Shown piece after piece: positions 347-62,055 of a stretch of 64,000 bases of DNA (position 1 is its first letter; each line of letters begins with the position of its first letter). Origin of the DNA: Chloropicon primus (Eukaryota); assembly GCA_023205875.1 (NCBI GenBank), contig CP060773.1:186001-250000 (forward strand), written 5' to 3'. Both the position numbers and the translations under genes were made by a program. The notes under the pieces are model-generated. The model was given only the letters and a program-made list of their open reading frames with translations. It did no database searches and was not told where the DNA came from.

Positions 347-668
347 CAAACCAAGCTTGCGACCCACCAATCGAAAGAACGCGAGACAAAGCTTCGTCTA
401 GTACTCTCCTCTTCCCCTCTCGTTGCCGTTCCCGTCCTCACCGTCCTCGATAAGGTGGCTCAATAGGGTACTTCCTCCTTCACTTTCTGGAACAAAAGTC
501 GATGCCTCGACCAATCCGAGCACCAAATGGGTCAAGTGAGGGCTCGTTGGAAAGATCTCGAGAAGCTCTTTCGTCCAGTACCCTCCTCTTGTCCTTCAAT
601 CCTCGTCCACGCCCCCTGCGTCCTCCCTTGTCCGCCGCCTTTCGTGGAGGATGCACAGCGTGATCCAC
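347..668. repeat. Dispersed intergenic repeat family A, copy 1
   Basis: Closely similar direct copy at ~55785-56110 and a diverged inverted copy at ~4790-4990. Each lies upstream of a gene in the same relative orientation (PDK, ferredoxin, SBDS). Confidence 0.9.
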
Positions 669-719
669 AACGTGTTTTTGATTCTCTCGTGGCGCGCGAG
701 ACAAAAAGGAGGAAGATCC

Positions 720-1075
720 ACCGAGGAGGGGAAAGAACGAGATAGATGGCGAGAACGAGAGTGTGAGAGGGAAAGACGACAACGCATCGCGATAGAACAT
801 CTCTTTATCTTTCGAACGAGCCCTCACTCGACTCGTTTGACAACCGGAGTGGTCGCCAACTTTGGTCATCAAGGCATTGGGCAGAGCTTCAGGAGCAGGA
901 GTGGCGTGGCTTTGCGACGCAGTGGAGGGCGAGGGAGGTGGATCCGGAGGGCGAGGGCGTTACGGAGCGAAGCGTTGACTCGATATCTTTCGATTGGTGG
1001 GGCGCACGACCGGTTTCTCTCCCGGAACAAGGGTTTGCTTGAGTTGTGAAGGCACGAGAGAGGACACGGCAGAGG
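720..1075. repeat. Dispersed intergenic repeat family B, copy 1
   Basis: Near-identical direct copy at ~33808-34170 and inverted copy at ~29545-29831. Confidence 0.92.
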
Positions 1076-1199
1076 GATGACGCTCGAGGTTCCGGCCAAG
1101 GCGGAGGAAGGTAGGACGAGGGGAGGGAGTGGAGGAACAGATGCGGTGGTTTCGTTTCATCACGATCAGACGGGCTTATCTTGGCCACCTTGACTGAGG

Positions 1200-2640: not shown

Positions 2641-2678
<38 letters not shown>

Positions 2679-4389: not shown

Positions 4390-4496
4390 CCCGCAAAACT
4401 TCTTTCTTTTTCTTCCGCTCCTCGTTTGCTCTTTCCATTGCCAAGGATTGAGAAACATGAAAACCAATCGATTCAGTTGAGAAGAACTTCGTCACA

Positions 4497-4790
4497 AGAG
4501 CGCCATCTTCTTCGTGCGACCACTCATTGGAAAGCTCGCGAGATGCTCTTTCCATCAATTCCTCCCTCGTCCTCTCCCTCTCTTGTTGCCGTCCTCGTTG
4601 TCGCGCTGAAGTTCACTCACTCACCTCGGTGCTCCTCCACCCGTCGCCTCGTGGAAAAGAAAGTGAGACCCCATCGGGCGGCGAGGAACACCGAGGTGAG
4701 TTCAGGGAGCCAGGGGACGACGAGGACGGGGGCCAGAGCGGACGAGGGAGGTATTGATGGAAAGAGCGTCTCGCGAGCTTTCCAATGATC
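4497..4790. repeat. Repeat family C (MITE-like, long imperfect terminal inverted repeats), copy 1
   Basis: CATTGGAAAGCTCGCGAGATGCTCTTTCCATCAATTCCTCCCTCGTCC at the left is inverted at ~4740-4787. Further copies at ~25892-26210 (inverted) and ~52455-52775. Confidence 0.88.
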
Positions 4791-5243
4791 CCTCGCTCGA
4801 CTCGTTTGGTGCTCGGATGGGTCGAGGGATTGACTGGGAGGACTGGATGTGAAGCAGAAACCACCCGAATGCCTAGTCTTATTGAGGACGGTGAAGAAAG
4901 TGACGGCCATGAGAGGGGAAGACGATCGCACGGAACGAAGAGTTGTCTCGCGATGTTCCGATTGGTGGGGCGCAAGCTTGGTTTGGCGTCTTGAGTCGAG
5001 AGGCAGAGAGGGAAAAGGAAGCGAGAAGCTACAGAACTTTTAGGCAGAGGCATTGGGCGTTCACTATAGTGGGTGGACTTGACGTCTGTGTACCTCAAAA
5101 GCTGACCATCTTTTGGTTCCATTAGGATTCACTGGTGTGCGGAGTGACGGAGGCGGTGGTATGACCGAGGACCGTCGGCGTTGAAGGTTGCCACCGGAGG
5201 GAGAAGGAGCGTCGAAAGGGGGGGGTTTCTTTGACGGAGGAGC

Positions 5244-9752: not shown

Positions 9753-10478
9753 TCACCCACAGTAACGTAATACGTCTTTTTTGTTTTGTGTTCGTTTCAC
9801 GTCGTTACATTTGTACGTCTCCACACGCGTGACCCGGTCTCCGTCCCGAGGGATGAGTTGTGTCTCTCTCGACCCATCAATGTGGGATTTTCTACTTCGG
9901 AGCGTTTTTTTTTCATTTCCATTTTGCAGTTTATCAATAACTCTCTCACTGCATATTGTAACCACTCCTTCACCCAACAACATCACCCCTTTTTCGACGG
10001 AATTAAGAACGTATTGCACACCTTATTCTCTCTTTCTGGTGTGGTTTAAGTAACGACACTCTTTCGAATGTTTTCCCTTTCTTCGTTCTAGGACGTTATT
10101 GACCTGATTTACGAGATCTGGAAAGGATTTTATTTTTGTGGAGGAGAGAGCCCAAGAAGATTAATGCCCGAGCACGAGGAGGCGGAGGCGGAGAGCAGCG
10201 GAGGAGGAAGGCATTGACGAGGCCATTGACCGCGAGAGAGGGAAGAGAGGGAACACCCCCACTGGTTCCCTTAGGTCATCACGGAACACTCTCACCCTCC
10301 ACAAACAACAACCGCCTTCCTCCAGTGACGCCAACACGAAGAGAAGAGCTTCAGGAAAGGAAACCAAAAGTTGTCTTCTTTCCATTCATCTCTCTCTTCC
10401 ATTCATTGGATTGGAATTGGTTTGGCCTTCTCTTGAGCAACGCACGTGTTTTCATTCGTAACGCCTGAACGTTACGTG

Positions 10479-12400: not shown

Positions 12401-12735
12401 CACTCACCCTCATCATTACCCTCATCATCCTCTCTGCAGGGAACAAAAGTGAGCAAGTGAGGGCTCATTGGAAAGATGAAGAGACAATGCGTCCATCCCT
12501 CAATCCTTCTGTTGCCCTTTTCCGCTGTCCTCGTCTTGATCCCCTCCACCACCACCATCAACACCACTCACCCTCATCATTACCCTCATCATCCTCTCTG
12601 TAGGGAACAAAAGTGAGCAAGTGAGGGCTCATTGGAAAGAGAAAGAGATAATGCGTCCATCCCTCAATCCTTCTGTTGCCCTTTCCCCTTGCCCTCGTCT
12701 TGATCCCCTCCACCACCACCACCACTCCCCACCCT
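12401..12735. repeat. Tandem duplication of a ~164-bp unit (repeat family F)
   Basis: Two adjacent copies of ...GGAACAAAAGTGAGCAAGTGAGGGCTCATTGGAAAGA..GAGA.AATGCGTCCATCCCTC...; related tandem pair at ~14947-15230. Confidence 0.9.
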
Positions 12736-13042
12736 CCTCCACCCAAGATCTGCAAAAGGGAGTTTAAAACAAATTTAGAATTTTCAAAAGCGATCCTCAG
12801 ACAGCAGCAGCAGAGAACACGAAGGAGGCGAAGGTGAGTGTTGTCGACGAGGAGGGGGACGACGACGGGAGGCGACAGGGACAGGGAAGGACCCTCGCGT
12901 CTTCCTCCTCTCGTCCTCTTTCGAATGACCCCCTGGTCGAAGTGATCGAGACACTGACACAGCGATCCCGTCTGCTTTTCCTTCCATCAGCGACAAGAAC
13001 AGAGAAGACAGAGACAGTGACAGTGACAGAGAGAGAGAGACT

Positions 13043-14886: not shown

Positions 14887-14946
14887 TCATTCTTCAATCA
14901 CAAAAAAATCTTCACAAAAATCCATCGCCTGGAAGCCTCCTCCTCG

Positions 14947-15230
14947 CCAAGTGAGGGCTCATTGGAAAGAGGAAGAGACGATGCGTCCATCCCTCTGTCT
15001 CCCTCCTCCTCTCCCTCCCCTCACCTGCCACCATCACCCCCATCATCACCAGCACCAACACCAACACCCTCATTACCCTCATCATCCTCTCTCTCTGTAG
15101 GAAACAAAAGTGAGCAAGTGATGGCTCATTGGAAAGAGGAAGAGACGATGCGTCCATCCCTCTGTCTCCCTCCTCCTCTCCCTCCCCTCACCCGCCACCA
15201 TCACCCCCATCATCCCCAGCACCACCCCTT
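14947..15230. repeat. Tandem duplication of a ~167-bp unit (repeat family F)
   Basis: Two copies of CAAGTGA.GGCTCATTGGAAAGAGGAAGAGACGATGCGTCCATCCCTCTGTCTCCCTCCTCCTCTCC... Confidence 0.9.
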
Positions 15231-16689: not shown

Positions 16690-19600
16690 AAGTGTACAGT
16701 ATCTATGTGACAACATAATGTAACTCTCTGTTTTGTTTACAATTCTTGTGATACAGCCGAGGACTTGATGTACCTGCAAGTGTGGGAGGACGGCAGCAGC
16801 AAAAAAAAGTCAGTGTCCGGTCGCGCAAACAAGCAAGGTATCCATTTGCCAAACAAAGTTGTGGTGATGTTCATGAGTTGGTAAGGGGGTGTGAACACTG
16901 AGAAAGATCGCATCGCCCAGCTACTCATCAATAGTTTCCTTTGCCATCATTAAGGAAGCCTCGTTTTGCAATTTGAGTGTGCTAAGCAAGGGGCAATATG
17001 TGGCGCCGTCGTCGAAACCAAAAGAGTCTCTCCTTCACTCACCGTCTTGCCTACATCCTCCTCGGGGGGTTGTCTACACCCTCCGCGTGAGCGAGGCCCT
17101 GGCTTTCCCCCTTGAAACAAGAAGCAGTGGAGAGAATGTCAGCAATTGATAATTCAGCTTACTCATTTCAAGTCGTAAGCAAACTCAACATCATGCTAGA
17201 ACTTTAGACCCGTTGGGGAACTCATCACACACGGTTATAGTTGCGACGAGGGAAGAATTTAGGGTCAGAGATGCCTGCAGACTCGTCCTGGGCTTACCTG
17301 AAATTGCCTGGGCCCTTCCCATCCCAGGGCCTTGCCCCTTCCGCCGAAAAGCTGCGCCGGACTCAACGTAGCGCGTCGTCCCTGGAAAAAGAAAAAAAAC
17401 AGGATGAGTTCGAACGTTTAGTCCAGTGCCTGGCAGAAAGCATGTCTGCGGCCGTGCTCCCTCACACTCAAAAACCTTCATCTCCTTGGGTGGGTAAATC
17501 AGAGAAATGAATGGAATTGCCTCAAAGGGTCTTTAAACACCGCAACATAAAAACTCAATACGAGTCCTATGCTACCGCTTCAGACATCTAATTGTGTCAT
17601 CACTTTTACCCTGTATAGAGCTCCGCACCAACACTTCCTCGATCGTGAATACTGCATCGCGCGATACTTTTCAAGGCTTCAGCTCTGGTGCCAACCAAAG
17701 TTTATCTACAAATTGAATTCAGACGGTAATTCCAATGCGTTGTATCGTCATCAGCCCCACAGTGAAAGTATCGCAGCAGCAGTGGACCTTGGCGTGTGTC
17801 TTGTGTGTGCGGACCTCATCCCAGTTCGATAAAGGTAATGCACTCTTGTTCGTTCAGTACTTCTTAGAGGATAAATGCCATCATCAGACGCCTGCTAAAA
17901 CGTCTTAAGAGGATTGACAGTTAAAAGATGTCATCCCCACGAACGCAGATGCTTTTGTTTTTGAGTTCCTGTCTTCGGATCGACACGAAAGGCGCTCTCG
18001 GATGACCCAGTAATCATGTTGGAATGATCATACGGCACTTCCTATTTTTTTTAACGGTTGTGTTTTCGTCACAGAGCTCTCTCTCTCTCTCTCTTTCTCT
18101 CTCGTCTTCTTCTTCGACAGGCAGCGGAGAAGAAGGAGTCCCTTTTGCGTGCGGGCACTTACATCTCTACGCTGAATCTGATGGAGGTGGTGAAGGAAAA
18201 AGCAAAGAGTCAGCAAATGGCTTCTTTGCTTTCGAGATTTTTGCATCAGCAATGGCACCAATACCCAATCTAAACACTGGGACACTAGCTTCCTAAGATG
18301 AGTTGGTCGTTCGACTCAATGTAAGCCAGCCTTTAGCGATATGACATCAGAACTAAAATTCAGCACACCGTGGCAAGGAGGCTAAGGTCTTCTTCATCTC
18401 TTTCGAGCGGTTGGGTGAGCACGTCAGATCACCTCCTTACCTTGTTCGTGGCACGAAGGAAAAGCTCGTCGCCGCCTCTCGCGCGTGTGGAGCAACGAAC
18501 TGAACGAAAACCGTTTTGTCAGAATCACCCGCAAGTTTACGAGGACAAAGAATGTTGGGCATACATAGACACATGAAGACGTACGGGAGAATGTACAAAC
18601 GTCTTATGCAACACGATGCCAAAACCATAGGCACAGTATTTAGCACACCAAAGTGGGACCCTCGCTGGTGTGGAAAATAGAAACCTAGGAGAGTCCGGGG
18701 TATAAATGTGTGCATGTGTGATGGCGCAGGTCGCCCCCTCGCACGGTTGTCTTACCTTCCCTCTTCGTACCTTCGCAGCCACGGAACTCGAGAGAAAGCC
18801 GAGGCCGTTTGTTTTACCTGGAAGAATGAGAACGAAGAAGCCAAGAGCAAAAGAGTCAGCCACTGGTTCTCTGCAAAGCGTTTTCGCGAAAACATACGAA
18901 TATTCCAGTGAGACAGGTCGGCGCTGCAAGTGGAGAAAACAAGCAAGCGAACGCCGGTTTAAAACTGGATGAAAACGTTTTCATTGTATGCTCCCCAAGC
19001 TAACCTTGTTCACAACAACTCCCGTGAAGGAGTTTTAGAAACAACAACGCAGCGAGAATCCCATTTTGCCTCTTGGGACCTCCGTGAAGAGCAATAGGAC
19101 CGATCGGACGCGGTTTCGAGGACGGGAGGCACTTACATGAAGATGGTGAGCGGCTACCGGACCCACATCAACGCTGCTGGGACTCACGAGGACCTGAAGT
19201 GGTTTGAGGGGACCAGAGAGGCGCGGTGTGTTAGTCAAGCGAGGCAGGACGCAAGCAAATCGGCAGGAGGACTGTATCCTGGCTGTAGACCTTAGCACCA
19301 TGAACTGGTGGTCAGGAGGATTTTATCAGGAATATTTCCTTGTCGCCCAACTACACAAGTAAGCGTCCAGCTAGCATTCTAGTGGCATAGCCAGACGTGT
19401 TGGAAGGGACTCGACTCTCTCTCTCTCTCTCTCTCTCGTTCGTTCTCGGTGCCCTCGGGACCGCAAAGACCAGAGAGAGAGGTGGTGGTGAGCTTCCGAG
19501 GCAAAACCATTGAGCTGGTATCGGAGACAACATTCTTTTGAGGCCTTCCGGAGCCAAAAAAAAATCATCTCACGACCCAACCCAAAAACCTAAAACCAAG

Positions 19601-20680
19601 CAAAGCTTGGCAGCAGGGGGAAGTGAGACAAGCTTCGGGAATGAAAGCAGAGCTCCGTGTTGCTATGATAATAATTCGATTCCGTTGCTGCACGTCTATC
19701 ACCACATCGTATAGGTCTGCAGAGGGAGCGTGCGATTTCATCATAGCTCTTCTTTCTCTTCCGAATGCAGTGGACCACGGCATGGCATGCCCTCGGTCCT
19801 TCCCACCTCAAGGTTTTCCTCCACGAAGCTTACCGTCGCGTGTCACCACGGACGCCAAAATTTTCGTGCGAACACTCGTTGGAAAGATCGAAAGAAGGTC
19901 TTTCGAATAAAACTGACCTCCCAACCTTCCACTCTCGTAATCGAGCGCTCTCAGGCCGCGAAACACGCCGACGTACCTTTGGCTCCCCTGGCCGCCGCCA
20001 TCCGACTGCATTTCTCCATTTCTTCAAATTTGAAGTTCAGCAGAGGGAAATGGAAATTGAGTGTAAACCTAATTTCCCGTTGGAAAAAAATTTTCGGAGT
20101 CAGAGCCAAAGGTGAAGTGCCAGGGGGAGGAGGTGAACACGAAAGGTGAGTTTCAGGACGGAAGTTGAGGAGGACGGAGGTAAACACTTCGCAAGAGAGT
20201 TACATCATTGGAACAAGCGTCTCGTCTTCTTTCCAATGATGTGCTTCATGCGTGGTTTGGTGAAGTTTGGATACTAACTTTGTCCGCATGAAGTGTCTCG
20301 CTTGGGACCCAGAAGTGAAACACAGAAGGTGAGTTTCAGGAAGGATGTTGAGGGTGACGGAGGGGAACACTTCCCGTAAAGGTGGCATCATCGGACGCAC
20401 CTTGCTCTCCTCTTTCGATTGGTGTACCGCATGCCACGAGTTCTGAAGTTTCGGACCCACCTTTGGTGCTGACAAGACAGTCTCCTGCCTCCTCTTGCAG
20501 AGAGACAGACCCAACAGGGGGACAGGTGCTGGCCACAGGAGGAGAGAGGGTGAAGCAGGAGGCGATGCCGTGGACCTTCTGAAGGGGAAGTCAATTCTAG
20601 AGAGCGGAGCCTGGCCATTGAAGACGAACGGAGAGAGACAGAGAGAGAGACAGAGAGAGAGGGGAAGGTGACCACCAAAG

Positions 20681-21367: not shown

Positions 21368-21865
21368 GACCCACGATAACCGACGACGATAACCGACGAC
21401 GACGAGGAGGACGACGACGACGACGGTCCAACACAACACAGCACACAAAAGTAAAAAGTTATAATGCACCTAACCTAAAAGCAAGGAAGAAGAGGACGGT
21501 GAATGGTGGTGAGTGAGCGAGACGCAGGGCACACAGGAGTAGTAGGATGGATGGATGGATGGATGCATTGTCTCTTCCTCTTTCCAAACAACCAAGCCAC
21601 TCCTCCACTTGCATCCATGCATTCCCTAGAGACAGAGACAGAGACAGAGGACAGAGACAGAAGCTGTTAATGATGGATGGATGGTGATGGTGGTGGTGGT
21701 GGTGGTGGTGATTGCCCATGCCAGGCTTCCATCTTTCCTTTCCTCTCCTCTTGTCTCTCCCGCCTGCTTCCGCTTCCTTCCAAGAGAGACAGAGGAGCCC
21801 ATCGGTGAGAGAGCAGACAGAAGCAAGAGGAGCACCACCGAGCCATCCATCCACCTCCTGCTGCC

Positions 21866-21900
<35 letters not shown>

Positions 21901-23712: not shown

Positions 23713-24444
23713 CGCTTACGCTTACTCCTCTCCTCTCCTCTCCTCTGCTCTTCTCGTTCGCCACGGCCAACACTCTCACTGCTGCATCAAGAAGACACGA
23801 AAGGCTTCCTCGTCAGTCCTTCGCTCCTCCCTTACGCCATTCCCGTCCATTCGCGACGTGGATGGTATCATTCGAAAGAGAAAGAAGAGACGCTTCCGTC
23901 GATCTCACCCTCGCTTGGTATTTCCCCCTCTTTTGTCTCACCTAACCTCGTTTGTTTGCGTCCTGTCGCCCCCTCGCGCGGCCCTTTGGTCTCGTAACGG
24001 AAGACCAGCCCCCTTCCCTGGAGAGGAACTTCATACGACACTTGAAGATGAGAAGATGCATGAGGAGGAGGAGGAAGTGGATGGTAATGGAGGAGAGGGA
24101 GAGGATGATCGGGGGGTGGTAGGCAGTTTCACGATCTTGTTGATTCCTCTTCTTTGCTCTCTTCATTCTCTTTCCAACGAACCATCACTTGCTGGGGACA
24201 CCTGAGGAGAGGAGAGGAAAGGATGCATGAGGAGGATTATGGAATGGATGGATGGAGAGGGACTGAGTTGATCCTCGCCTGGTGACGGGTGGGATGCCAC
24301 ACTCCTCGCTCACCTGATCCTTGCTCCTTGAGAAGCTCTAAAATAATAATAATAAAACGGAAACCTTCTTCTTCTTATAATGAGTCGTCGTCGGTCGGTC
24401 GTCTTCATCATCGTCGCCTTCCACGAGGAGGCCTCGTTCCAGCC

Positions 24445-25664: not shown

Positions 25665-26260
25665 AAAAACGATGCAAACAAAACCCTTCGATTCAGTTTC
25701 AATCCCTCGTCAGGGCGCCATCTCCTTCGTGCGGATGCTCAAACGAAAGAGCGCGAGATGATCTTTCCATCGATGCCTTCCTCGTCTGCTCTGGCCCTCG
25801 TTCTCGCCTCCGGTGTCGTCCACATGAACTCACCTGCCTGGCCAAGAAAAAGGGAAACTTTCTCGCGTCAATCGAGTAAAACTTTCTCACTAGAGCGCCA
25901 TCTTTTTCGTGCGGATGCTCATTGGAAAGATCGCGAGACGCTCTTTCCATCTATACCTCCCTCGTCCGCTCTGGCCCCCGTCCTCGTCGTCCCCTGGCTC
26001 CCTGAACTCACCTCGGTGTTCCTCGCCGCCCGATGGGGTCTCACTTTCTTTTCCACGAGGCGACGGGTGGAGGAGCACCGAGGTGAGTGAGTGAACTTCA
26101 GCGCGACAACGAGGACGGCAACAAGAGAGGGAGAGGACGAGGGAGGAATTGATGGAAAGAGCATCTCGCGAGCTTTCCAATGAGTGGTCGCACGAAGAAG
26201 ATGGCGCTCTGACGAGGGATTGAAACTGAATCGAAGGGTTTTGTTTGCATTGTTTTTTGT
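25665..26260. repeat. Composite repeat (family C plus extra arm) filling the ARPC2/LSM3 divergent promoter
   Basis: 25665-25722 is inverted at ~26200-26258. The block 25665-26210 is largely the reverse complement of 52455-52995. Confidence 0.85.
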
Positions 26261-28364: not shown

Positions 28365-29588
28365 TCAATCGATGAGGTGGCTCACGTCCGCCGTCCCAAG
28401 CTTGCCGCTGTAACTCCCGTTCCACACCTGCTTGGCGAACGTCTCGTTGGGAAGAATGATGCTGAGCATGTAGAGCTTCTCGGCAGCGTCAGGATTGACG
28501 ATGGAATGAACGTTCTTCGGCTTCACGAGAAGCGTGTCGCCCTCCGCACCCGTGACTGGCTCGTCGCTCTGATTCAGGTACAGATCCGCCCTTCCCGAAA
28601 GCACGATGAACAGCTCGTAGGCCTCGTCATGCAGGTGCCTTGGTATCACGCCCTGTGGATCCAAGATCTCGATGCTGCACGTGAAAGGGGTGCAATCCCG
28701 GAAAGGGTCGAAGACCGGAGCTATCCTGTTGTTCATGCTCGGCAATTGAAACGTCAGCAGCTCGGCCGTCCTCCGCAACCTGGAGCTCAGCAGGCAGCTT
28801 TCCGTTTCCTGCTGCTTGAGCTTGATTTGCGCCGGAACGTCCATGGAGTTCCTCCTGTCCACCGGAGAAGAAGATCGCCTGTGATCCATCGACCAGGTCT
28901 TGCTTCCCCCTCCGGCCCCTTGGGCGGCAATCACACCCTTGTGCGCCGCAAGTGAGACCGGGACGGATATGCTCAACATGACCATCCCTTCCTTCCCCCC
29001 GCCCCCCCGCGATTCTCCCCCCCTCGTCTCTATAGCGTAAGGCACCCTCGGAGCTATCGCAAAGATGTCCCCGGACTCGAGCTCCACCACGTCGCTGACT
29101 TTTGTCGACTCCGTCCCGAAGGACAAGTGGCCCAGCCGCCCGCTGCCGGAGAGGATGTAATACACGTGGTAGCAGTCCACTTCCACCCTCACCCTCGACC
29201 TCTCGGAGCTGGCGGACGCCTCCGACCCTCCCAAGCCAGCTTCATCTGCAACGAGCTCGAGCTCCACGCCAAAGGGGCTGCCTTCCCCGTCCCGACTCCG
29301 CTTCAACACGGTGTCGACGAGCCTTCCTCTGTCATCCTTCAACCACTTGTGGTCCTTACTCGAGAGCAACCGAGCCAAACTTCGCTCCGGCCTTTCGCAC
29401 ATCCTCTCCCTTCGGTCATTCCCCCCCGACCTCGCCCTCTGCGACTCTCTCCCCCGCCGCCTCACCGGCCTCGCACCACCGGGGACACCTAGGCTCCCCG
29501 TCGTCGTCGCCCTGCCACCCCTGTTGATCATCCTCAATGAATCAAGCACAAAACCAAAAAAGGGAGATAAACCGGTCGTGCTCCCCAC
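28365..29588 (-). CDS. Double cupin-domain protein
   Basis: VYYILSGSGR..LESGDIFAIAPRVPYAI and IPRHLHDEAYELFIVLSGRA..GDTLLVKPKNVHSIVN. The true start may be the ATG near 29531. Confidence 0.8.
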   Translation of the reverse strand: MGSTTGLSPFFGFVLDSLRMINRGGRATTTGSLGVPGGARPVRRRGRESQRARSGGNDRRERMCERPERSLARLLSSKDHKWLKDDRGRLVDTVLKRSRDGEGSPFGVELELVADEAGLGGSEASASSERSRVRVEVDCYHVYYILSGSGRLGHLSFGTESTKVSDVVELESGDIFAIAPRVPYAIETRGGESRGGGGKEGMVMLSISVPVSLAAHKGVIAAQGAGGGSKTWSMDHRRSSSPVDRRNSMDVPAQIKLKQQETESCLLSSRLRRTAELLTFQLPSMNNRIAPVFDPFRDCTPFTCSIEILDPQGVIPRHLHDEAYELFIVLSGRADLYLNQSDEPVTGAEGDTLLVKPKNVHSIVNPDAAEKLYMLSIILPNETFAKQVWNGSYSGKLGTADVSHLID

Positions 29589-32670: not shown

Positions 32671-32716
32671 AAGAGAACGACCCGGTGGTGAGGATCTGAG
32701 GAGCACGGGCGTGAAG

Positions 32717-33807: not shown

Positions 33808-34170
33808 ACCGAGGAGGGGAAAGAACGAGAACGAGATAGATGGCGAGAACGAGAGTGTGAGAAGGAAAGACGACAACGCATCGCGGTAGAACATCTCTTT
33901 ATCTTTCGAACGAGCCCTCACTCGACTCGTTTGGCAACCGGAGTGGTCGCCAACTTTGGTCATCAAGGCATTGGGCAGAGCTTCAGGAGCAGGAGTGGCG
34001 TGACTTTGCGACGCAGTGGAGGGCGAGGGAGGTGAATCCGGAGGGCGAGGGCGCTACAGAGCGAAGCGTTGACTCGATATCTTTCGATTGGTGGGGCGCA
34101 CGACCGGTTTCTCTCCCGGAACAAGGGTTTGCTTGAGTTGTGAAGGCACGAGAGAGGACACGGCAAAGGG
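33808..34170. repeat. Repeat family B, direct copy
   Basis: Near-identical to 720-1075. Confidence 0.92.
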
Positions 34171-40050: not shown

Positions 40051-40630
40051 ATAACGGCCGAGCACGAGGGCGAACCAGGAGGAGGGAGAGAGAGAGAAGG
40101 GGGACGGGAGAGCGCGGAGGAGGAAGAGGGAAGCGGAGGACCGGTCAGAAGGAAGCGTCGTCTCGTGCTCTTTCGAAAGAGCCCTCGCTCGAAGAGAACG
40201 ACCCGGTGGTGAGGATCTGAGGAGCACGGGCGTGAAGATGGCGGTGACAGGGGGAGCGAGCAAGAGGCAGAGGACGGAGGGATGCGCTGGAGGTGCTTCC
40301 CGAGTGGGCGTGGTTCCTGGTCTTGAAGCAGCTGGACGATTACGACCACCTTGCTTTTGGGGTTGACCTGCAGGACGTTCCTCGAGGCGGTGACGAAGGC
40401 GACGAGCCCCGAGGAGAAGAAGAAGGCTCGCCTGAGGACGGACCTGTCGCAAGAGAAGCCGCCTTGCCCTTGGGACCGGTGGACTTGTACGTACGCAGCT
40501 TCAGGGGGTCACCTTGACATTCTGCAGTAGGCTCGAAGCCAGAATCCGCCTTGCCCTTGGAACCCAGTGGAATGCAGATCCGCAGCGAATCGTCACCCGA
40601 AAGTCCTCAAGTGGATCCAGGAGAACTCTT
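40051..40630 (+). pseudogene. Internally deleted duplicate of the ankyrin pseudogene
   Basis: 40051-40458 is a near-identical 408-bp copy of 32530-32937, joined directly to degenerate ankyrin repeats ending ...GTGGATCCAGGAGAACTCTT as at 33708. Confidence 0.88.
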
Positions 40631-46764: not shown

Positions 46765-47882
46765 CTTGACGGACCGGGATATGGATGTTCTTGGCTCTTC
46801 TCTTCTCCAGCAAAAGCTTGACTCAGATCACAACACAGATGATCGATCGGATCTCTCGTCGTCGTGTTCTCCGTTTGAACTCCGCACGAAAAAAAAAAAC
46901 GAAAAGAGCGAGGACGTCGGCCGTTACGACAACTGCTGCTGGTCCACGGGAGCGAGGCGTTACACCGCGACGCGTTCGAGCAAACTACAGAACACGAGTG
47001 ATGATCCCAAGACAAAAACAAACAAGCAAAACTTCCCTTTCAGTTCCCTCATTCCAAGAACCTCTCGTCATTCGCTTCGAGTAACACGTCGTTCGAAAGG
47101 TCGCGAGACAATGCATCCATCGGTGACCCCCTCCGCTTCCCCGTCTCTCCCCCCTCTCCCCCCTCCTCGCCTCAAACTCACCTGGATCAGGCGAAAACCA
47201 AAGGAGGAAAAAAAAAACAACGTCTCAGCCTCTCAATTCCTCAATTCCTCACGAAACCTTTCGAGCGACACGTCGTTCGAAAGTTCGAGACGTAACGCAT
47301 CCGATGATGATTCGTAACGCCTCTATTGCTCTCGTCCGTCGCCGCCCTTGTCGTCCGAAAAGGGCCTACTCACCTCTCCGGTTTTTCGACTTCGGTTTTG
47401 ATATTTTTTCTCTCTCTCTCCTTCCCAAAATCGTAAAGGTGAACGAAGGAGAGGAGAGGAGAGGAGAGGACGAAGTTTGGCGGTCACCAAGGCAAGGGGA
47501 GGGTGGATACTTGCCAAGATAAACCAACTCATCGAAACTAGAGCTCACTATCTTTCGAAAGAGCCCTCACTCGACTCGGTTTACCCCCTGGTTGATCGAG
47601 AAAGGTGGTGCAGAAAGCCTCTGTGAGTGTCAGTGTCCGTGAGTGTTGGAAAGGAGTCCACAAAGTTGTGGACGGTCAAGGAAAGAGCGAGCGTTGAGAG
47701 GGTCGTGAGCCAACCAACCAAAACGTGCGTCCCAAGATCTTTCCATCCACTGCTGGACTCGCTTGCTTTGTGCTCCGAAGCGAGTGGGCAACCCTTCCTA
47801 ACACGATACTGCAGCAGCAGCAGCAAAGTGTCCTCCTCCTGGCGAAGAGTTTGAGCCTTCTGTTCCTCAAGCAGCAGCCGCA

Positions 47883-48734: not shown

Positions 48735-50559
48735 CTACTGCCCTCCGTGAAAGTGGGATCTCACTGCCTCCATGATGGATTGTGCCAGCTGGTCAGCCCC
48801 TTGCTGGGTCTCAGCTTCCGCGTAAATTCGAACGATGTCTTCGGTTCCCGATGGGCGCACAAACGCACGGCCGAGGCTTGCCTTTGAAACGAGTTCATCG
48901 ACCTTCACTTGAAGCTCTTGGGGCTGCAGTATCTGCTGCTCTGCGTTCGTTGTCTTGATCTGAGACCTGTCCGGCACGACGCATTTTAGCATTCGGCTGG
49001 GAACGTCTCTGTACAGGTCGCACCATTCCCGGTGAGTCCACTTCTTGTGCGTTAGGATCACGTACACCAACAGAGCCATCGACAGGGCGTCGCCCACGGA
49101 AGGGTTTACGATGTCAGACAGCTCCAGCAGATGCATCGCACCTCCGTTCCCTTGCGGGACTTTCCTCAACCTCTCGAGAAAGCTCTCGGAAAACAAGACC
49201 GTCCCGTGGCCATTGGCTTCAAAGTAGACCGAGACATCAAAAGCGAGAGCCGAGTGGTGGAGGTGCTTCACCCCAGTCTTTGTTTTGACCACGCTCAGAC
49301 CGAGATTCTCTTCAAGGTATCTCGTGGAGCTTCCGTTCGCGTAGGCGGTCTGGATCACCCCGATGCTTGGCTTCGGCCCTGTCATCGCCCCGTCGAGCTT
49401 GGAGAGGCAAGACTTGAGGTGGGCCGCGATCAGACAAAGGATTTTGTCGCCATCGAGGAGGTCTACGGACCCCGGTGCCCCCTGACCCGACTGCCCAGCT
49501 CCGGGCAAGAAGAAGACAACTCGGTCGGCATCGCCATCGAGGCTCAAGCAGAGGGAATCACCAGGCAAGTCCACAAACGTTTCGGGAAGAACTTTCTCCT
49601 TCTGGACGTAATCTGCTCCGCATAGGTGGTTCACGACCCCTCCTCCGGTGTTCTTCAACGTCACCACGGTCCCTGCGTTCGATATGGCTGACACAACGCT
49701 CGGCGCTTTGAGTGCACCAACGCCGTTGGCGCAATCGATGATCAGATGACCCACCGGTTTGCTGCCCTGACCCGATAGCAGCCTGGAGCACCCTTCCCTC
49801 AATTTGTCAAAATAATCGCTCTCTTCCGACGGCTTCCCGCAATTCTTCATCAGGACCTGCCAGTGCAGCTGCGGCGTCGTTCTCAGCGTGTCCGTCGACC
49901 CCAGTGCCTCGCAACCCGCGGCCTTCACCCCCGCGATTGCGGCCGCGATCAAAGCCTCGCCCGTGGGACGAGTATCTCTCGCCAGGAGGACAACACCACC
50001 GGAAGCGGCGACGCACGTATTCTCGGGGCGCAGCACCTTCAAGACAGGGCATCATGGGAAACAAAAGCCGAACAGATCGAGTCGAGCGAGTTAGTACTGG
50101 CTTCCCTTCCTCCGCACAGAAAGACTGAGAGAGGGGTGCAACAGTGGTCTGCTTTGCGCGGCGCGGACACCACACACTTACAATCTTCTCCACAACCTGT
50201 TGGAGTTCCTGGCTCGATTGAGCGGCCACAACCTCTTCGGCATACTTCTCCCAAGACATGTGAAGCATCCCTCCGTCACCATCCACGAGCTTGATCCCAT
50301 TGTCCTCCACTGGGTTATGGGAAGCCGTGACAACCAAACCAGTGGCTTTCCCATCCAATGCTCTCGACCTCAAGCCAGCGAGCAAGCCGCAACGAAATGC
50401 CACGCCTCTCAGCGTCTCCCCCTTCCTCCTGAACCCCGCAGTCCCGTAACTGATCTTCACTCGACTCCTCCTCTCCTCCTCTCCATCAATCGTCTTCCAA
50501 AGCTCTCGGAAGAACTTGTCATCCTCTTCACGAACTTGAAGGTGATCCTGATGCCTCAT
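48735..50559 (-). CDS. PGM3: Phosphoacetylglucosamine mutase, spliced
   Basis: SYGTAGFR, VTASHNPVEDNGIK, DCANGVG, SLDGDADR, QTAYANG, YFEANGHG, RAFVRPSGTED. Intron ~50040-50180. Confidence 0.95.
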
Positions 50560-50589
50560 TCCTCTTCCTCGTGAAACAAACGACCCGTC

Positions 50590-50920
50590 AAACGAAAGAG
50601 CAAGAGACGAAGCTTCTCTCTCTGCAACTGTCCTCCCTTCCTCTCCCTTCCCCTCGCTCTCGTTCCCTCTGGACGGACAACTTCTCTCTCTCTCTCTCTC
50701 TGCCGTGTTCGATCGAAAGAGAAAGGAGATCAAATCCTATTCACTGGGTCAAAATCCTCGAGGCTGCACTCATTCGAAAGAGAAAGAGACGAAGCTTCTT
50801 CCTATGCACTTCTCCTCCCTCTCTGTCTCCTGCCCTCGCTCTCGTTCCCTCTGGACGGAACAACTTCTCTCTCTCTCTCTCTCTCTCTCTGCCGTGTGTT
50901 CTGATCGAAAGGGAAAGGAC
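50590..50920. repeat. Repeat family D (two tandem ~185-bp units)
   Basis: Two units GAAAGAG.AAGAGACGAAGCTTCT...CCCTCGCTCTCGTTCCCTCTGGACGGA..; reverse complement at ~56225-56460. Confidence 0.88.
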
Positions 50921-51329
50921 AAAGCATAACGGGCGAGCAGGATGGTGATGGTGATGGTGATGGGTGATGGTGATGGTGGGATTGGAAGGGGGGACTAGGG
51001 GGAAGAGGAAGGGCAGTGATGCAGGCGGAAGCATCGGGTCACGATCTTTCCATAGAGCATTCAATTGTTGAGAATGAAGCTCTGGTGGGGAAGTTTTGAT
51101 GTGGTGAGGTGGCGTGCACGGCGTACCCGCTTGCGAGAGGATTACTACCAAACAACAAACAAAACTATTCATCAAAATGATCAAAAGCCCCTCTCCCCTC
51201 TTTGGCAAGGGCGAGAGCAATCAGCTTTGACTCTTTACACACAAAAAAAAAACCTCTACACTCTCGAGTCGTAGATCCTCACCCGAGGATAGGATGAAAC
51301 CGTCGCCTGTCGTCGTCGTTGCGTCGTCC

Positions 51330-52198: not shown

Positions 52199-52454
52199 CT
52201 TCTTCTTCTTCGTCATCATCAACATCAACAATCTGTCATGAAAAAAACAAAAACAAAACAAAAACTTCATCAGCTTCTCTCTTCCAGCCTCAACACGACG
52301 GCGTGCGTTACGAGTGACCACTCGTTGGAAAGAGGAGGACGTAACGGCAGCGGTGGCGTGAACCAAACCAGTCGTGACACTTTATATTTGCATCCTCTCG
52401 TCCACAACGCGTCACTGGCTCCAAACACCTCCATCCCTTTCTAAAATCCTCATC

Positions 52455-52995
52455 AGAGCGCCATCTTCTTCGTGCGACCACTCATTGGAAAGATCGCGAG
52501 ACACTCTTTCCATCAATTCCTCCCTCGTCCTCTCCCTCTCTTGTTGCCGTCCTCGTTGTCGCGCTGAAGTTCACTCACTCACCTCGGTGCTCCTCCACCC
52601 GTCGCCTCGTGGAAAAGAAAGTGAGACCCCATCGGGCGGCGAGGAACACCGAGGTGAGTTCAGGGAGCCAGGGGACGACGAGGACGGGGGCCAGAGCGGA
52701 CGAGGGAGGTATTGATGGAAAGAGCGGCTCGCGAGCTTTCCAATGAGCATCCGCACGAAAAAGATGGCGCTCTGACGAAGATTTGGGACGACTGAACGTG
52801 TTGTTTTCCGCCGTTTTGGGTTCCATGGGTGCCGCCTTTGCAGGTGAGTGAGCGAGGACACGGGGGCCAGAGCGGATGAGGAAGGCATCGATGGAAAGAT
52901 CATCTCGCTCTCTTTCGTTTGAGCATCCGCAGGAAGGAGATGGCGCCCTGACGAGGGATTGAAACTGAATTGAAGGGTTTTGTTTGCATCGTTTT
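52455..52995. repeat. Composite repeat (family C plus arm) in the CREG/DUF2045 divergent promoter
   Basis: ~75-bp imperfect TIRs AGAGCGCCATCTT.TTCGTGCG..CTCATTGGAAAG at 52455 and 52775; a third arm extends to 52995. Confidence 0.88.
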
Positions 52996-55545: not shown

Positions 55546-55784
55546 ACTGCCTTGAGCTGCCTCAGCCTACCAACCTAACTCGCTAACTGGTTGTGAGAGA
55601 CCAAAGGACAAGAGTTACAGATGGTGAGGAAGGTGATAAGGAAGACGATGAAGATGAGGAATCGCGTCAGTTACGTGAGCGAACGTCCACTCGTAACGCT
55701 CAACCAGCCGCCTTACCCTCAAATTTCTAGACGCGTCTAGAATGAATGTGACCCCAGCTCCAACGAACAAAACCAAACGAAACC

Positions 55785-56460
55785 CAAACCAAGCTTGCGA
55801 CCCACCAATCGAAAGAGCGCGAGCCAAAGCTTCGTCTAGTACCCTCCTCTTCCCCTCTCAATGCCGTTCCCGTCGTCACCGTCCTCTATAAGGTGGCTCA
55901 ATCGGGTACTTCCTCCTTCACTTTCTGGAACAAAAGTCCATGCCTCGACCAATCCGAGCACCAAATGGGTCAAGTGAGGGCTCGTTGGAAAGACCTCGAG
56001 GAGATCTTTCGTCCAGTACCCTCGTCTTGTCCTTAAATCCTCGTACCCGCCTCCTAAGACCTCCGCTTTCTCTTCGGTCTCGTCTCGTCTCCTTCTTCGT
56101 GGAGGATGCCACAAAACACTTGTGGCTGCGGAGAGCCCAGCGACCAGCAGGTGAGTGAAGCTCGAGACTTCGCGATGAATCTGAGGGCGAGGGACGAGAG
56201 AGGAAGGAAGGAGAGGTGTATAGAAAGAAGCATCGTCTCTTTCTCTTTCGAATGAGTGCAGCCTCGAGGATTTTGACCCAGTGAATAGGATTTGATCTCC
56301 TTTCTCTTTCGATCGAACACGGCAGAGAGAGAGAGAGAGAAGTTGTCCGTCCAGAGGGAACGAGAGCGAGGGGAAGGGAGAGGAAGGGAGGACAGTTGCA
56401 GAGAGAGAAGCTTTGTCTCTTGCTCTTTTGAATGAGTGCAGCCTCGAGGATTTTGACCAA
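55785..56460. repeat. Repeat family A copy plus family D inverted copy in a divergent promoter
   Basis: 55785-56110 matches 347-668; 56225-56460 matches the reverse complement of 50590-50800. Confidence 0.88.
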
Positions 56461-56537
56461 GTTTTGACCAAGTTTCGTGACAACTGAGAAGGATTGTTTG
56501 CCCAAAAGTCTGCAGGATTGCATCGGGTGTGGACGTG

Positions 56538-57716: not shown

Positions 57717-58319
57717 TCACTCGCCTTGCCTCTGAGAAGCGCCGAGAGCGAGGCCAAAGGCCGCGGACGCGAAGCTGAGGCCGAGGCCCAGCGGAAGAGC
57801 GCGAGGAACGGACAATGCAAGGACACCAAGTGCCCACACGTAGGGAACATTCTGCTTTGCTTTGGCGTCGAGTGTTCTCAAGCCTCCCTCCACTTCCCTC
57901 GACCGTCTGGTCTTCACATCGTCCAAGTCCTTGAAAGTTTGCTCCTTTTTCGTGGCCGCTTGGTAGAACAATCCCGACGAAGCAAGGACGCCGGCAGGAC
58001 CGAGTGGGCCCCAGGGAAGGCACTCCCCAGTAACCGCGCTCCATGTGGTGAATGGAAAGGTTCTCGTGTCAGCCGGGCACGGAGCGGTTTCTGGGCACGA
58101 GCATGGTGAGGAGGAGACGCTCTCCGCTGCTCTGGCTTCGTCACTAGTCACCACACCTTGAAGCACCACGAGCGTCGTCGCCACCGCGTCCCGCCTCCTG
58201 TAAAGCATCCGCCTCCTGGACAAGGAATTCTGGCGATGAGCGTCTTGGACGAAGGCAGTGTCCTCCACCGTGGTGGTTGCCTTCCTCTGCCCTCCACCGT
58301 GCCGAGTCACTCCACCCAT
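57717..58319 (-). CDS. Hypothetical protein, twin-Arg-like N-terminus and hydrophobic C-terminus
   Basis: RRRDAVATTLVVL..ARA; C-terminal TM segments. The ORF-track extension to 58499 lies in repeat E. Confidence 0.5.
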   Translation of the reverse strand: MGGVTRHGGGQRKATTTVEDTAFVQDAHRQNSLSRRRMLYRRRDAVATTLVVLQGVVTSDEARAAESVSSSPCSCPETAPCPADTRTFPFTTWSAVTGECLPWGPLGPAGVLASSGLFYQAATKKEQTFKDLDDVKTRRSREVEGGLRTLDAKAKQNVPYVWALGVLALSVPRALPLGLGLSFASAAFGLALGASQRQGE

Positions 58320-58580
58320 GGCGTCACGCGACGGCTCGTTCGAAAGAGCAAGAGATGACGCTTCCTTCTCTCCGGTTCTCCGTTGACCTGCTACCCCGCC
58401 GCGCGCGCTCCGTTCCTCCTTCTTTCTCTCTCTCTCCCTCCTCCTGGTTCGCCCTCGTGCTCGGCCGTTATGATGGTTCAGCGGAAGGGAGAAATCCACC
58501 AGAAGAGAAAAGAACAGAGAGGGGAGGAGGGAGGAAGGGAGAGAGGAGGAGGAAGAGGAGAGAGGAGGAGCTTACCATTA

Positions 58581-58615
<35 letters not shown>

Positions 58616-58822
58616 TTGTGTGTGCCCGGCATTGTTTGCAGGGTGAAGGATCATCAAGCAGAGACAGAGACACGCACAGAGACAGAGAGTTCTCGCTTGC
58701 TTGGCATCTTGGGACAACGAAGGTCATCTTTTTCTCGATGAATGTCAAAGTACAGGTTGTTGTTGTTGGTATTTATGGTGTTTAGAGCATCATTCATATT
58801 TACATTGTGCTCCATTGGGTGA

Positions 58823-61093
58823 TCACGCGTGTGCGTGCCGATGGTTCGAATGGTTGTGGTGAGGCTCTGAGGCACCCTCCTTCTCTTGCTCCTTGTGGTG
58901 GTGGCCTTTCGTGTGGTGCCCCTTCACGTTGAGCCTGTTCAGTGCGGTCAAGGCGTCCTCAAAGTGCTTGAAGAGCACGGCGACGTCCTGCGGGTCCATC
59001 TCCTCCGGCACGGAACCGATCTGGTCGATGTTGATGGGGTGCTTGAGAGAGCTCAAGACGTTCTCGTTCAGAACGTTCAGCTGCTCGGGGGCGTTGGCCT
59101 TCATCTTCTTCAGCATGTTCAGTATGCCCTGGTAAATGATGCGGAGCTCCTTCTTCACCTTGTACAGGCTCTTCGCCTTGGTCTCAAGCCCCGCGAGGTC
59201 GTTGTCCAGCTGAGCCTGAAGGGTGATGTGCCTCACTTCCTCATTCCTTTCCATGAAGATGCCCTTGCCGGTGAGATGAAGGAGCTCCAAATCCTCGTGA
59301 AGGGCCAGCTTGTCGGCCTTCATGTCGGCAAGCATCCTCTCGCGGCTCTCCTTCTCGTTGCGCAGGTTGATGAGACCCTCGACCGTTTTATTCCAGACAC
59401 TGACCACCTCGTCCGCGTTCGTCGTGTCGGTGACCTTGTACAACTTATGTAGCTTCACCATCGTGCTCGTCGTCTTGTCGACTTCGGTGGAGTCCTCGAC
59501 CTTGTCCATGTTGGCGTTCTGCACCGTGGTGATCAGCCCCAAGAAGTTCGTGTTGATGATCTGGCTCTCGGTGACGAGTCCCATCTTCTTCGATTGCTTC
59601 TTCAGCTTTGCGAGCTCATTCCTCTTGAAGGCAAGCATCTTTTGTTTCCTCTTCCTCTCCTCCTCGTGACGCTGGAGCCACTTGAATTTCTGAATCTTGG
59701 CCGCATTCACAGACGTTTTGATCTTCACCTGTTCCTTCTTCGCCAGCTTGGTATCCCCGACCTCCTCCTCCACCTCCTTCTGCTTCTCTTGCACCTTCTT
59801 GTACGTCTCGACGTGAAGCTTAGCGACCCGCTGCAAGATGTGCTTGAAGATCATCCTTCGGGCGATGATGACGAACCGGTCCTCCTCCCTCTCCGCGATC
59901 ATTTCCTTAATCTCCGCCTCCCGCTTCAAGAGCTTCTGCCGATGCTTCAGCTCCTTCTTGTGAGTCTTGTTCTTCAGCTTGATCGTCGCCCTCTGCGTCT
60001 TGATCAGCTCCTCCCCCTCGAGCGCCCGGAACTGAAGCCTGTCGTACTCCACCGCCAAGTTCCTGATCTTGTAACGCAGCTCGTCCTCGAAATCAGCGAT
60101 GAGGGCCTCGTTCTCCCTCTTCGCCTCGTTCTCCATCCAAGGGTCAAGCGAAGACTGCGTCGGGGTAGTCGCCTTGAGCTTCAAGAGGCTCTTGCCCTCC
60201 GGCGTGCTCTGGGCCGAGTCCACGCTCCACACCCCCGAGTCCTGCTTCGAGATCACGCCGGACATCGGGTTCGTATTCGGAGTGATTCTGTTGTTGGCGA
60301 CAAACTTTCTGCTCATGCTCCCCCTTCTCGATTGCATCGGGGTGCCCGACGCACTATTCTGCTGGCTCAGGCCCAGCCCTTCCCTATCCAGTGGCTGGCC
60401 CTCCGACAGAGACTCGAGCGCGAGTCCCAAGCCCACCGACGAGGTGAAGGTGTCCTCGAGGGATGCCACCACGCCGCCGTCGACGCTTCCCTTGCTCGCA
60501 TCCAAGTCCGATTCGCCCTTGGCCAGCCCCGAGATCTTGGGCAGACTCGTGTGACTCGACGAGAGCGAGCCGGGGGTGCCTGGCCCCGGGCTCGCCTTCT
60601 CCATCATTAGTTTCCGTTTCCTCGCGCTTTCTTTCCTCAGGCTCTGACTGTATTGCTGACTCCTCTCCCTCGAGTTCCGCAGTGCCTTCTCCTCCGGCGT
60701 CTCCTTCGTTCTCCTGGGCCTCCTCTTCCTCAGGACTGTGACCCTCTGACTCGGCGAGTCCCCGTCCGAGTCCGAACAAGACTTGGTGCTCGCTCCGGTG
60801 TTGCTGACTTGAAACGACAGCCGTGTCAGAGAAAAGTGCAACGAGGAGCTGTCCAAGTTCGGGTCATGCTCCTTGGAGAACGGTGACCCGAATGCTTCCC
60901 CTCCAGATGCACTCCCACCACCGTCCAGCAACAAGTCAGAAGACTCATCGTCCTCTCCGAACGTGCTGTACTTGAGCAGAGACTCAAAGGCTGGGCTCGT
61001 CTTTCCTGCGTTCTCCGCGAACCAGTCCGCGATATCATCGGGGCGAAGGCTCCCCGCACCAAACCTCATTGGTGAGGAGGTCCCTACGTCCAT
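58823..61093 (-). CDS. Large coiled-coil protein with disordered Ser-rich N-terminus
   Basis: 756-aa uninterrupted ORF; K/E-rich heptads in the C-terminal half. Confidence 0.75.
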   Translation of the reverse strand: MDVGTSSPMRFGAGSLRPDDIADWFAENAGKTSPAFESLLKYSTFGEDDESSDLLLDGGGSASGGEAFGSPFSKEHDPNLDSSSLHFSLTRLSFQVSNTGASTKSCSDSDGDSPSQRVTVLRKRRPRRTKETPEEKALRNSRERSQQYSQSLRKESARKRKLMMEKASPGPGTPGSLSSSHTSLPKISGLAKGESDLDASKGSVDGGVVASLEDTFTSSVGLGLALESLSEGQPLDREGLGLSQQNSASGTPMQSRRGSMSRKFVANNRITPNTNPMSGVISKQDSGVWSVDSAQSTPEGKSLLKLKATTPTQSSLDPWMENEAKRENEALIADFEDELRYKIRNLAVEYDRLQFRALEGEELIKTQRATIKLKNKTHKKELKHRQKLLKREAEIKEMIAEREEDRFVIIARRMIFKHILQRVAKLHVETYKKVQEKQKEVEEEVGDTKLAKKEQVKIKTSVNAAKIQKFKWLQRHEEERKRKQKMLAFKRNELAKLKKQSKKMGLVTESQIINTNFLGLITTVQNANMDKVEDSTEVDKTTSTMVKLHKLYKVTDTTNADEVVSVWNKTVEGLINLRNEKESRERMLADMKADKLALHEDLELLHLTGKGIFMERNEEVRHITLQAQLDNDLAGLETKAKSLYKVKKELRIIYQGILNMLKKMKANAPEQLNVLNENVLSSLKHPINIDQIGSVPEEMDPQDVAVLFKHFEDALTALNRLNVKGHHTKGHHHKEQEKEGASEPHHNHSNHRHAHA

Positions 61094-62055
61094 CTTCCCC
61101 CTCCTTCACACCTCGTGCCTCCTCTTACTGCAGTGCTTGCCTGTGGCACCAGGGCACCTCTTCGCTAAAGCTTGTGAACCGGTGACTCCTTCACCAGGAC
61201 GCCGTTCGCTTCGAGTGAAGGCTTGAAAGAAAGAGAAAGAGGCAAGAAAGACGAATCTGACTCCTCCTCTCTCCCCTCCCCTCGTCCTCGTCGCTTCTTT
61301 GTCCCTGGTACACTTTATCTCCCTCAGACCCCTTCAAGAAGGGGAAAGAACTTCGTGTCAGGTCAAACTTTCTCACCAGAGCGCCGTTTCCTTCAAGCGA
61401 CGGCTTATTCGAAAGATCAAGAGACGATCGTTTGGATCACGTCCTCACCTTTCGCCTCCCTTGCCGTCCCCGGCTTGGAATCGTCGACAAAGTCCTCCCC
61501 TTTCCCTGGTCCCAGAGTCAACGCCCTTGTCCTTGGGATGAATGCCCCGGGAAAATGAAAAAAATTTACTCTTGAAATTGGAATAAATTGGGTGGCGGAG
61601 AAGCGCAGAGAGCAGAAGAGGGTCGACGGTTTGTTGGAGGAAACGAGGGTCGACGGAGCGACAAGAGGACGAGGGAGAGAAAAAAGTACGAAACTAGATC
61701 TCAAAATCTTTCGAACGACCCCTTGCTTGACGAATTTGACAACCGGAGTCACCAGCATCATCGCGTCATCGGGGTCCTTTGTCCTTTGTGTCCTTTGTGA
61801 CCACTAGTTTGTCTGAACTCGTGAGAGACTTGTGGCGGTCGTGAAAGAGGCGAGGCGTTACGATACGCGGTAACGCTTGTCGAGATCTTTCGAACGACCC
61901 CTTGCTTAACGAATTTGACTACGGGATACATCCTTGGCGTCCGTTACAAGGTTCTGGTCCTGGGATTAAGGATCGACGACGAGAGGGGAGAGGAGCGAGG
62001 AAGTGAGAGGATCCAGGAGGAGCATTAGCATCACCATCACATCCGTGGAGCAACG

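Follow-up and report, generated by a model that had tools for sequence, protein, structure and literature searches.

Paired motif copies at about 180-bp spacing flank gene starts in a 64-kb window of Chloropicon primus and may mark promoter nucleosomes

A 64-kb stretch of the Chloropicon primus genome (contig CP060773.1, positions 186,001 to 250,000; hereafter the window, numbered from its first base) carries a motif of about 42 bp containing GAAAG. Its copies repeat at about 180 bp on one strand and face each other across short gaps at gene starts. This is a real and precise promoter architecture, which is apparently undescribed in print. From the base pattern of the window, the copies are probably the centres of nucleosome-sized modules. 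The sequence itself would encode the +1 and +2 nucleosomes flanking a short open promoter gap, with the motif at the predicted dyad, and such modules would be copied as units and exchanged between promoters.

Motif and copy number

The motif was present at the expected base and strand at all 40 positions counted by hand in the original prediction, with a variant core at two of them (4959 and 56429). Column counts placed the conserved block (~42 bp) from about -18 to +24 relative to the first G of GAAAG, which is the reference base for all offsets below. Near -25 stands a less conserved block, CCAAA, backed by a pyrimidine-rich tract. A matrix scan of the window (score at least 16, palindromic shadows removed) yielded 46 copies, adding 19882+, 21584-, 32653-, 40174-, 58342+ and 61229+ to the 40. 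Ten order-4 Markov simulations of 64 kb each gave a mean of 0.1 matches scoring at least 12, none scoring at least 20, and one maximum of 19.5. The weak members were 61229, 20416 and 24174, the last of which failed the leave-family-out test. When GAAAG was masked in the matrix, a single further site appeared (10382-, score 11.0). Because this site likewise holds GAAAG, the invariance of the pentamer is not merely an effect of seed picking.

Other identities of the motif were tried and rejected. An RNA hairpin is contradicted by the perfect GAAAG..CTTTC symmetry being present in just 11 of the 46 copies, with no covariation and no excess complementarity about the motif centre. Rfam and tRNA searches returned 0 and 0 matches, leaving no sign of a structured RNA or a tRNA-derived short interspersed element. 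A small nuclear RNA (snRNA)-type upstream sequence element was dismissed, there being no snRNA gene within the window; what the paper on such promoters says of Chloropicon deals solely with telomeres. Pattern matches in viral (7 loci) and metagenome sequences (10 loci; all contigs 33–69% GC) were single, and they (L001–L017) were treated as chance since none had a paired copy. Literature searches found no published description of the motif, most subscription papers lying outside their reach. The words "nucleosome" and "promoter" had no match in the main texts of PMC6731263 and PMC12301720, nor "nucleosome" in the supplement of PMC12301720, while other supplements might describe repeat families.

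Spacing, orientation and gene context

Same-strand neighbours closer than 600 bp formed 17 pairs, all spaced at 160–184 bp and 14 of them at 176–184 bp. The tandem spacers collapsed to nine families (at least 65% identity, identity matrix read by eye). These families are mostly at mutual background identity (45–59%), yet seven of the nine kept their length within 176–184 bp. None of 2,000,000 uniform draws (60–400 bp) matched this tightness. The tandem spacing first proposed (mostly 176–184 bp, range 160–184 bp, across dissimilar families) was thus borne out, and its peak near 180 bp persisted after family collapsing.

Facing pairs closer than 600 bp numbered 11. The facing layout had also been foreseen, but at ~250–300 bp, and the observed distances are wider (252–351 bp). 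Eight of these pairs lie between divergent genes, in line with the expectation that most would, and the remaining three between tandem genes. Back-to-back pairs within 600 bp were absent among the 46 copies. Outward of 23 copies tested no third copy was found, and one weak second copy was seen. Long head-to-tail arrays, a trait of tandem satellites, did not occur in the window.

Equal motif frequency in coding sequence (CDS) had been named at the outset as evidence against this architecture; none of the 46 cores overlapped CDS, which by an approximate map makes up 58.5% of the window. Forty of the 46 copies sit 34–707 bp before 25 of the 39 gene starts, pointing back to the central gap. The earlier description of the copies as intergenic is correct in that they lie outside CDS, but it is too simple, as most copies are in 5' untranslated regions or 5' introns.

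Among the contig pieces listed, spliced RNA contigs reach into four predicted gaps. One of them (681–1105) begins in the middle of the first gap and runs through motifs 813 and 991. A spliced X4 contig extends to 50858 and includes motifs 50594 and 50776, both of which lie in the 5' leader of the phosphoacetylglucosamine mutase mRNA. As contigs carry no start information, start sites were assigned to the gaps or the DNA beyond them rather than to single bases. Donor-like hexamers fell at +80 to +100, the predicted promoter-side nucleosome edge, in 8 of 23 cases. One intron and one probable intron hold a motif:

4431..4624, minus strand: 5' intron holding motif 4530 (joint 4430–4625, CT..AC, runs X4 and X6), with the donor at the predicted nucleosome edge and a locus-specific 3' part
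19194..19976, minus strand: probable first intron holding motif 19882 (weak: 15-letter loose end, one X6 contig, window-unique, GT..AG)

A multi-exon spliced transcript with no long open reading frame (ORF) spans 17110–19993 on the minus strand and apparently starts in the predicted gap 19967–20148. It is possibly a long non-coding RNA or a small-exon gene.

Helical rhythm and predicted nucleosome frame

The rhythm was analysed in 26 copies dereplicated at 80% flank identity (21 at 70%, 10 at 65%). The best periods of A/T (WW) and G/C (SS) dinucleotides were 10.25–10.75 bp in both flanks of the 26 copies. The phase of the A/T versus G/C rhythm was constant from about -70 to +95, and the rhythmic stretch of ~150 bp has the motif at its centre. 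Masking the motif left a best 147-bp frame with a period of 10.4 bp and its centre at +12, which coincides with the point (+11) about which the motif is partly symmetrical. This frame was positive in 23 of the 26 copies, as compared with 50% of 145 unrelated GAAAG sites. WW peaks fell at ~5, 15, 26, 36 bp and so on from the frame centre. Peaks at such distances from the dyad are the canonical pattern of nucleosomal DNA.

The phase of one flank predicted that of the other in 22/26 and 21/26 copies, and the leave-one-out phase test succeeded in 23/26, 19/21 and 10/10 at 80, 70 and 65% collapsing. Phase-free autocorrelation gave a best period of 10.3 bp in the predicted cores without the motif and no such period in CDS, other non-coding DNA or 13 motif-free promoters. 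Outside the modules, 13 dinucleotide and k-mer sets showed no clear nucleosome-scale peak across the window (AA/TT was best at 172 bp, ~2 standard deviations, and was not counted). The rhythm was carried by AA, AT and CC, not by TA. In the window as a whole, TpA is strongly depleted (observed/expected 0.34) and GA/TC is enriched (1.36).

The tandem spacings are distributed across the whole helical turn (R = 0.07, 12 pairs). Six of these 12 pairs are informative, their two frames being different, and in them the phase switches to the frame of the next motif at +85 to +105. Since the phase runs through the motif and breaks midway between copies, the linker is likely to lie between motifs and the motif at the dyad.

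The predicted gap between facing cores measures 83–182 bp (median 105). Runs of at least four A/T were more frequent there (16 in 1027 bp) than in the cores (14 in 2646 bp; p = 0.003). Neither GAAAG nor its partner TTC, placed ~10 bp from the predicted dyad on opposite sides, is in phase with the bending rhythm, so that a putative reader protein probably recognizes both on the outer face of the nucleosome. This reader is the least secure part of the explanation.

Modules and cassettes in the window

The copies are arranged as follows (motif positions with strand, a slash separating facing arms):

312..1052: four-module cassette 373+, 550+ / 813-, 991-; gap 635–728; between a PDK-like gene (minus) and Cmc1 (plus)
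4469..5020: cassette 4530+ / 4782-, 4959-; gap 4615–4697; between a small spliced gene (minus) and SBDS (plus)
10297..10443, minus: weak candidate module, motif 10382-, score 11.0, before a serine acetyltransferase gene
12410..12983: cassette 12471+, 12635+ (recent 164-bp tandem pair) / 12922-; from the HSP20 end to the UBP6-like start
14904..15217, plus: recent tandem pair 14965+, 15132+ at 167 bp, flanking the gene at 15289 on its upstream side
19821..20477: cassette 19882+ / 20233-, 20416-; gap 19967–20148; between the spliced minus-strand transcript and a PLAC8 gene
21499..21645, minus: single module 21584-, before an MPP6-like gene
23813..24235: facing pair 23874+ / 24174- (24174 weak)
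25684..26238: cassette 25745+, 25925+ / 26177-; inverted 93–98% copy of the 4.5 kb and 52.5 kb cassettes
29533..29857, plus: arm 29594+, 29772+, before a cupin gene, ending beside a Fanzor element
32568..32714, minus: module 32653-, before an ankyrin-like gene (label by reading), facing 29772+ across the Fanzor element
33822..34146, minus: arm 33907-, 34085-, before an amine-oxidase-family gene
40089..40235, minus: module 40174-, duplicated with 32653- including the start of its gene
47034..47617: cassette 47095+, 47279+ / 47556-; weak outer partner 47743- at 187 bp
50533..51111: cassette 50594+, 50776+ / 51050-; plus-strand copies in the phosphoacetylglucosamine mutase 5' leader
52267..52977: cassette 52328+, 52488+ / 52740-, 52916-; between a CREG-like gene (minus) and DUF2045 (plus)
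55750..56490: cassette 55811+, 55988+ / 56249-, 56429-; left arm 93% like 346–626, right arm 94% like 50595–50843
58281..58427, plus: single module 58342+
61168..61952: cassette 61229+, 61411+ / 61712-, 61891-; before a SufE/NadA gene (plus)

The Fanzor/TnpB-like element occupies 29832–32496 (ORF 30172–32268, minus strand; Pfam Cas12f1-like TNB and HTH_OrfB_IS605). It sits between 29772+ and 32653-, inside an otherwise facing pair, where the open gap is predicted. By eye, it matches polymorphic insertions of 2.66–2.71 kb in the published C. primus indel table (PMC6731263). The adjoining module and ankyrin-like gene start (87-bp repeats) are duplicated at 99% (32497–33710 and 40048–40640), and, as judged by reading, neither gene copy looks intact. 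An unrelated ORF at 58319 is served by the inner flank (58328–58504) that the ankyrin-like modules also have.

Turnover of modules

Arms and cassettes recur at 93–99% identity between loci, in new combinations. One cassette of 300–345 bp is 93–98% identical at three loci, its own two arms being 72–74% alike, and arm 29594/29772 is 95–96% like arms 813/991 and 33907/34085. The homology ends are ragged: each pairwise comparison gave different ones, often located within the motif or close to it. No target-site duplication was seen by eye at 12 homology ends, where the true ends may be eroded. Of the old mobile family originally suggested as a second possibility, the repeat family with its near-identical arms stands, but a classical mobile element is not supported.

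Published polymorphism gave a further view of the unit. Supplementary Data 8 of PMC6731263 holds 73 heterozygous C. primus insertions or deletions (indels) of at least 100 bp. Sizes of 160–200 bp accounted for 27 of the 73 (median 181), as compared with 11 and 6 in the flanking 41-bp bins (p = 1.3e-4). A further seven measured 336–389 bp, and a period of 181 bp fitted best among the 54 sizes in the 130–700 bp range. At least 13 indel rows, all of 153–386 bp, hold one of six core octamers, of which one (354 bp) looks like chance. Within the 160–200 bp peak, 8 of 27 hold a core octamer versus 2.6% by chance. The octamer-bearing indels are distributed over chromosomes 5, 6, 7, 9, 11, 13, 18 and 19; accordingly, the motif extends across the genome, and modules come and go as whole units. 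Most motif-bearing indels comprise one or two units, not whole facing cassettes, and the published set includes arrays of a few units (559 and 665 bp). A 165-bp heterozygous insertion matches the 14965/15132 unit by eye.

Many motif-free indels of 160–200 bp consist, by eye, of a purine/pyrimidine tract bounded by GATC-rich runs, which hints at other module families, perhaps with N6-methyladenine (6mA)-type linkers. Repeat content is 8.3–9.1% in C. primus and 5.5–6.0% in Chloropicon roscoffensis (PMC12301720).

Proposed mechanism and alternative explanations

We propose that histones would occupy each module with their dyad near +12 (runner-up +22). Sequence would position two nucleosomes, the first and the second, on either side of the promoter gap at a spacing of ~180 bp, and the gap of 83–182 bp would be nucleosome-free and hold the start sites. 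Modules would gain copies through slippage or unequal exchange of entire units and pass from one promoter to another through homology-driven exchange, and selection would keep the unit length. The nucleosome-sized promoter grammar first suggested gains support from the 10.4-bp WW/SS phasing, the RNA reaching the central gaps and the 181-bp indel peak, with occupancy itself standing as a prediction.

Several points weigh against this explanation. Its dyads, gaps and start sites are predictions, and it covers one 64-kb window of one species. The gene models are approximations from ORFs, Pfam and RNA joints. The RNA runs are themselves inferred to be RNA, and their contigs cannot show starts and may be misjoined at repeats. 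Three tandem spacings are short (160, 164 and 167 bp). The motif is absent before 14 of the 39 gene starts, and six of the 46 copies, those besides the 40 placed before gene starts, are located at the upstream side of a gene. The dyad at +12 is narrowly ahead of +22 (gain 1.40 vs 1.30), and in one of the six informative pairs (50594) the outer-side flank is in the wrong frame. The gap is not A/T-richer overall (0.37–0.53 vs 0.39–0.54). Because the 26 copies share ancestry, they are less than fully independent, with 10 remaining at the strictest collapsing. The edges of the indel bins were chosen after the sizes had been seen, and 19 of the 27 peak indels lack a core octamer, which implies that the 180-bp unit is not confined to this motif but extends more widely.

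The copies could instead be the remains of a transposon resembling a miniature inverted-repeat transposable element (MITE), whose inverted ends carried a factor site and were co-opted as promoters, the nucleosome rhythm coming along. We consider this unlikely. The facing inverted arms and the cassette shared by three loci would suit such an origin, and CERP2 promoters of Caenorhabditis elegans likewise have paired motifs and a 10-bp TT periodicity (10.1101/2022.01.21.477252); bending, moreover, leaves the invariant GAAAG unexplained. However, the fixed ends of a MITE were not found: inverted arms are present, but the homology ends differ from pair to pair and show no target-site duplication. 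Left and right arms are reassorted between loci, and the polymorphic units are mostly single or double. An old transposon origin is compatible with sequence-positioned modules as the best explanation.

A neutral, dispersed satellite-like repeat of 5' regions, with 180 bp arising from linker breaks and the motif a functionless sign of shared ancestry, appears more improbable still. It would account for the recent tandem duplicates (12471/12635 and 14965/15132) and for the motif-free majority of the 160–200 bp indels. It does not account for unrelated spacers holding 176–184 bp, for periodic columns that remain conserved, or for the strict orientation to gene starts with no back-to-back pair; we infer that such a repeat would also be costly under selection for a small genome.

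Least credible, and in our judgement very improbable, is that the motif is a linker carrying periodic DNA methylation (Dnmt5-type 5-methylcytosine, or 6mA), the nucleosomes occupying the DNA that separates the copies. Linker methylation is present in related green algae, with 6mA on the first and second linkers downstream of the start site (PMC12636532, PMC12695648), which would fit two copies per arm. Many copies contain CG-rich palindromes, and an MT-A70-type gene is annotated in C. primus among the labels listed. Gene A3770_04p34790 is a possible DNA 6mA enzyme. Nevertheless, the rhythm is unbroken through the motif and broken midway between copies. CG periodicity showed no peak at 110–290 bp in 48,928 unmasked bases outside the modules, where the CpG observed/expected ratio was 0.87. 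The predicted linkers are poor in CpG (1.9% vs 7.6% in cores), and the Dnmt5-type lead of the original prediction is not supported. The 6mA-linker idea was rejected, with ApT at 2.4% in predicted linkers versus 3.7% in cores and at just 1.1–1.75 times background at the motif.

The C. primus annotation includes DNMT2 and a weak DNMT1-like label but no Dnmt5 label among those listed. Two C5 DNA methyltransferase orthogroups, their family not given, were assigned by clustering to C. roscoffensis alone and not to C. primus (PMC12301720 File S2), and a loss of Dnmt5 in C. primus is possible. A bolder extension of the nucleosome-module explanation is that C. primus builds most of its promoters from self-renewing nucleosome-sized modules, with a dedicated protein reading the dyad motif on +1 and +2, and that these expanded after the loss of the sister species' cytosine methyltransferases. 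We regard this as doubtful, though conceivable.

Comparison with known systems

The C. primus modules are a variant of sequence-guided promoter nucleosomes. Like the WW-type promoter nucleosomes, they have a 10-bp WW rhythm with antiphase SS over nucleosome length on both sides of a short gap (125–140 bp there, 83–182 bp predicted here), often at bidirectional promoters and housekeeping genes. There, however, the signal is statistical and the positions are mapped. Here, the positions are just predicted, and the signal is borne by a family of alignable modules whose 42-bp motif falls at the predicted dyad; it reaches the second nucleosome and is copied in whole units.

Nucleosome-length centromeric satellites include Arabidopsis CEN178 and alpha satellite with its CENP-B box. 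They share with the modules a monomer of nucleosome length with one conserved box, but the modules number at most two units per arm in the window, form no long arrays and are dispersed at active gene starts.

The MITE-derived CERP2/CELE2 repeats, whose m1m2 motifs are bound by HIM-17 (10.1101/2022.01.21.477252), also provide a large share of promoters with paired oriented motifs and 10-bp periodicity. Their m1 and m2 are 10–30 bp apart and many copies lie outside promoters, whereas the C. primus modules have spacings of ~180 bp and 250–350 bp, copies all near gene ends or starts, and no fixed ends. Dnmt5 linker methylation in Micromonas and Ostreococcus (Huff and Zilberman 2014, via PMC12636532 and PMC12695648) likewise concerns small marine green algae with nucleosome-scale sequence organisation. 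C. primus differs in having no CG periodicity or CpG excess, a signal limited to 5' regions and the motif at the predicted dyad. Introner elements (PMC9860276) are algal repeats tied to nucleosome geometry as well, and here too splice donors occur at the predicted nucleosome edge. Unlike introners, the modules are not bounded by intron ends and never interrupt CDS. They occur in exonic leaders as well as introns: 813, 991, 50594 and 50776 lie in RNA-covered leaders and 4530 lies inside an intron.

In the usual view, sequence sets the rotation of nucleosomes and remodelers set their position (PMC12724613), and how far sequence alone sets the translational position of promoter nucleosomes is a long-standing question. 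An alignable motif with fixed spacing and gain or loss by units leads to base-level predictions of dyads, start sites and repeat length. If the explanation is correct, promoters would evolve by exchange of whole nucleosome units, and the modules would serve algal work as naturally occurring positioning sequences and as ready-made bidirectional promoters.

Neighbouring genes

The ClpB and HSP20 genes (6490–12304) closely flank the serine acetyltransferase gene, and neither heat-shock gene has the motif before its start. The closest named relative of the SBDS protein encoded in the window is from Chloropicon laureae (62%).

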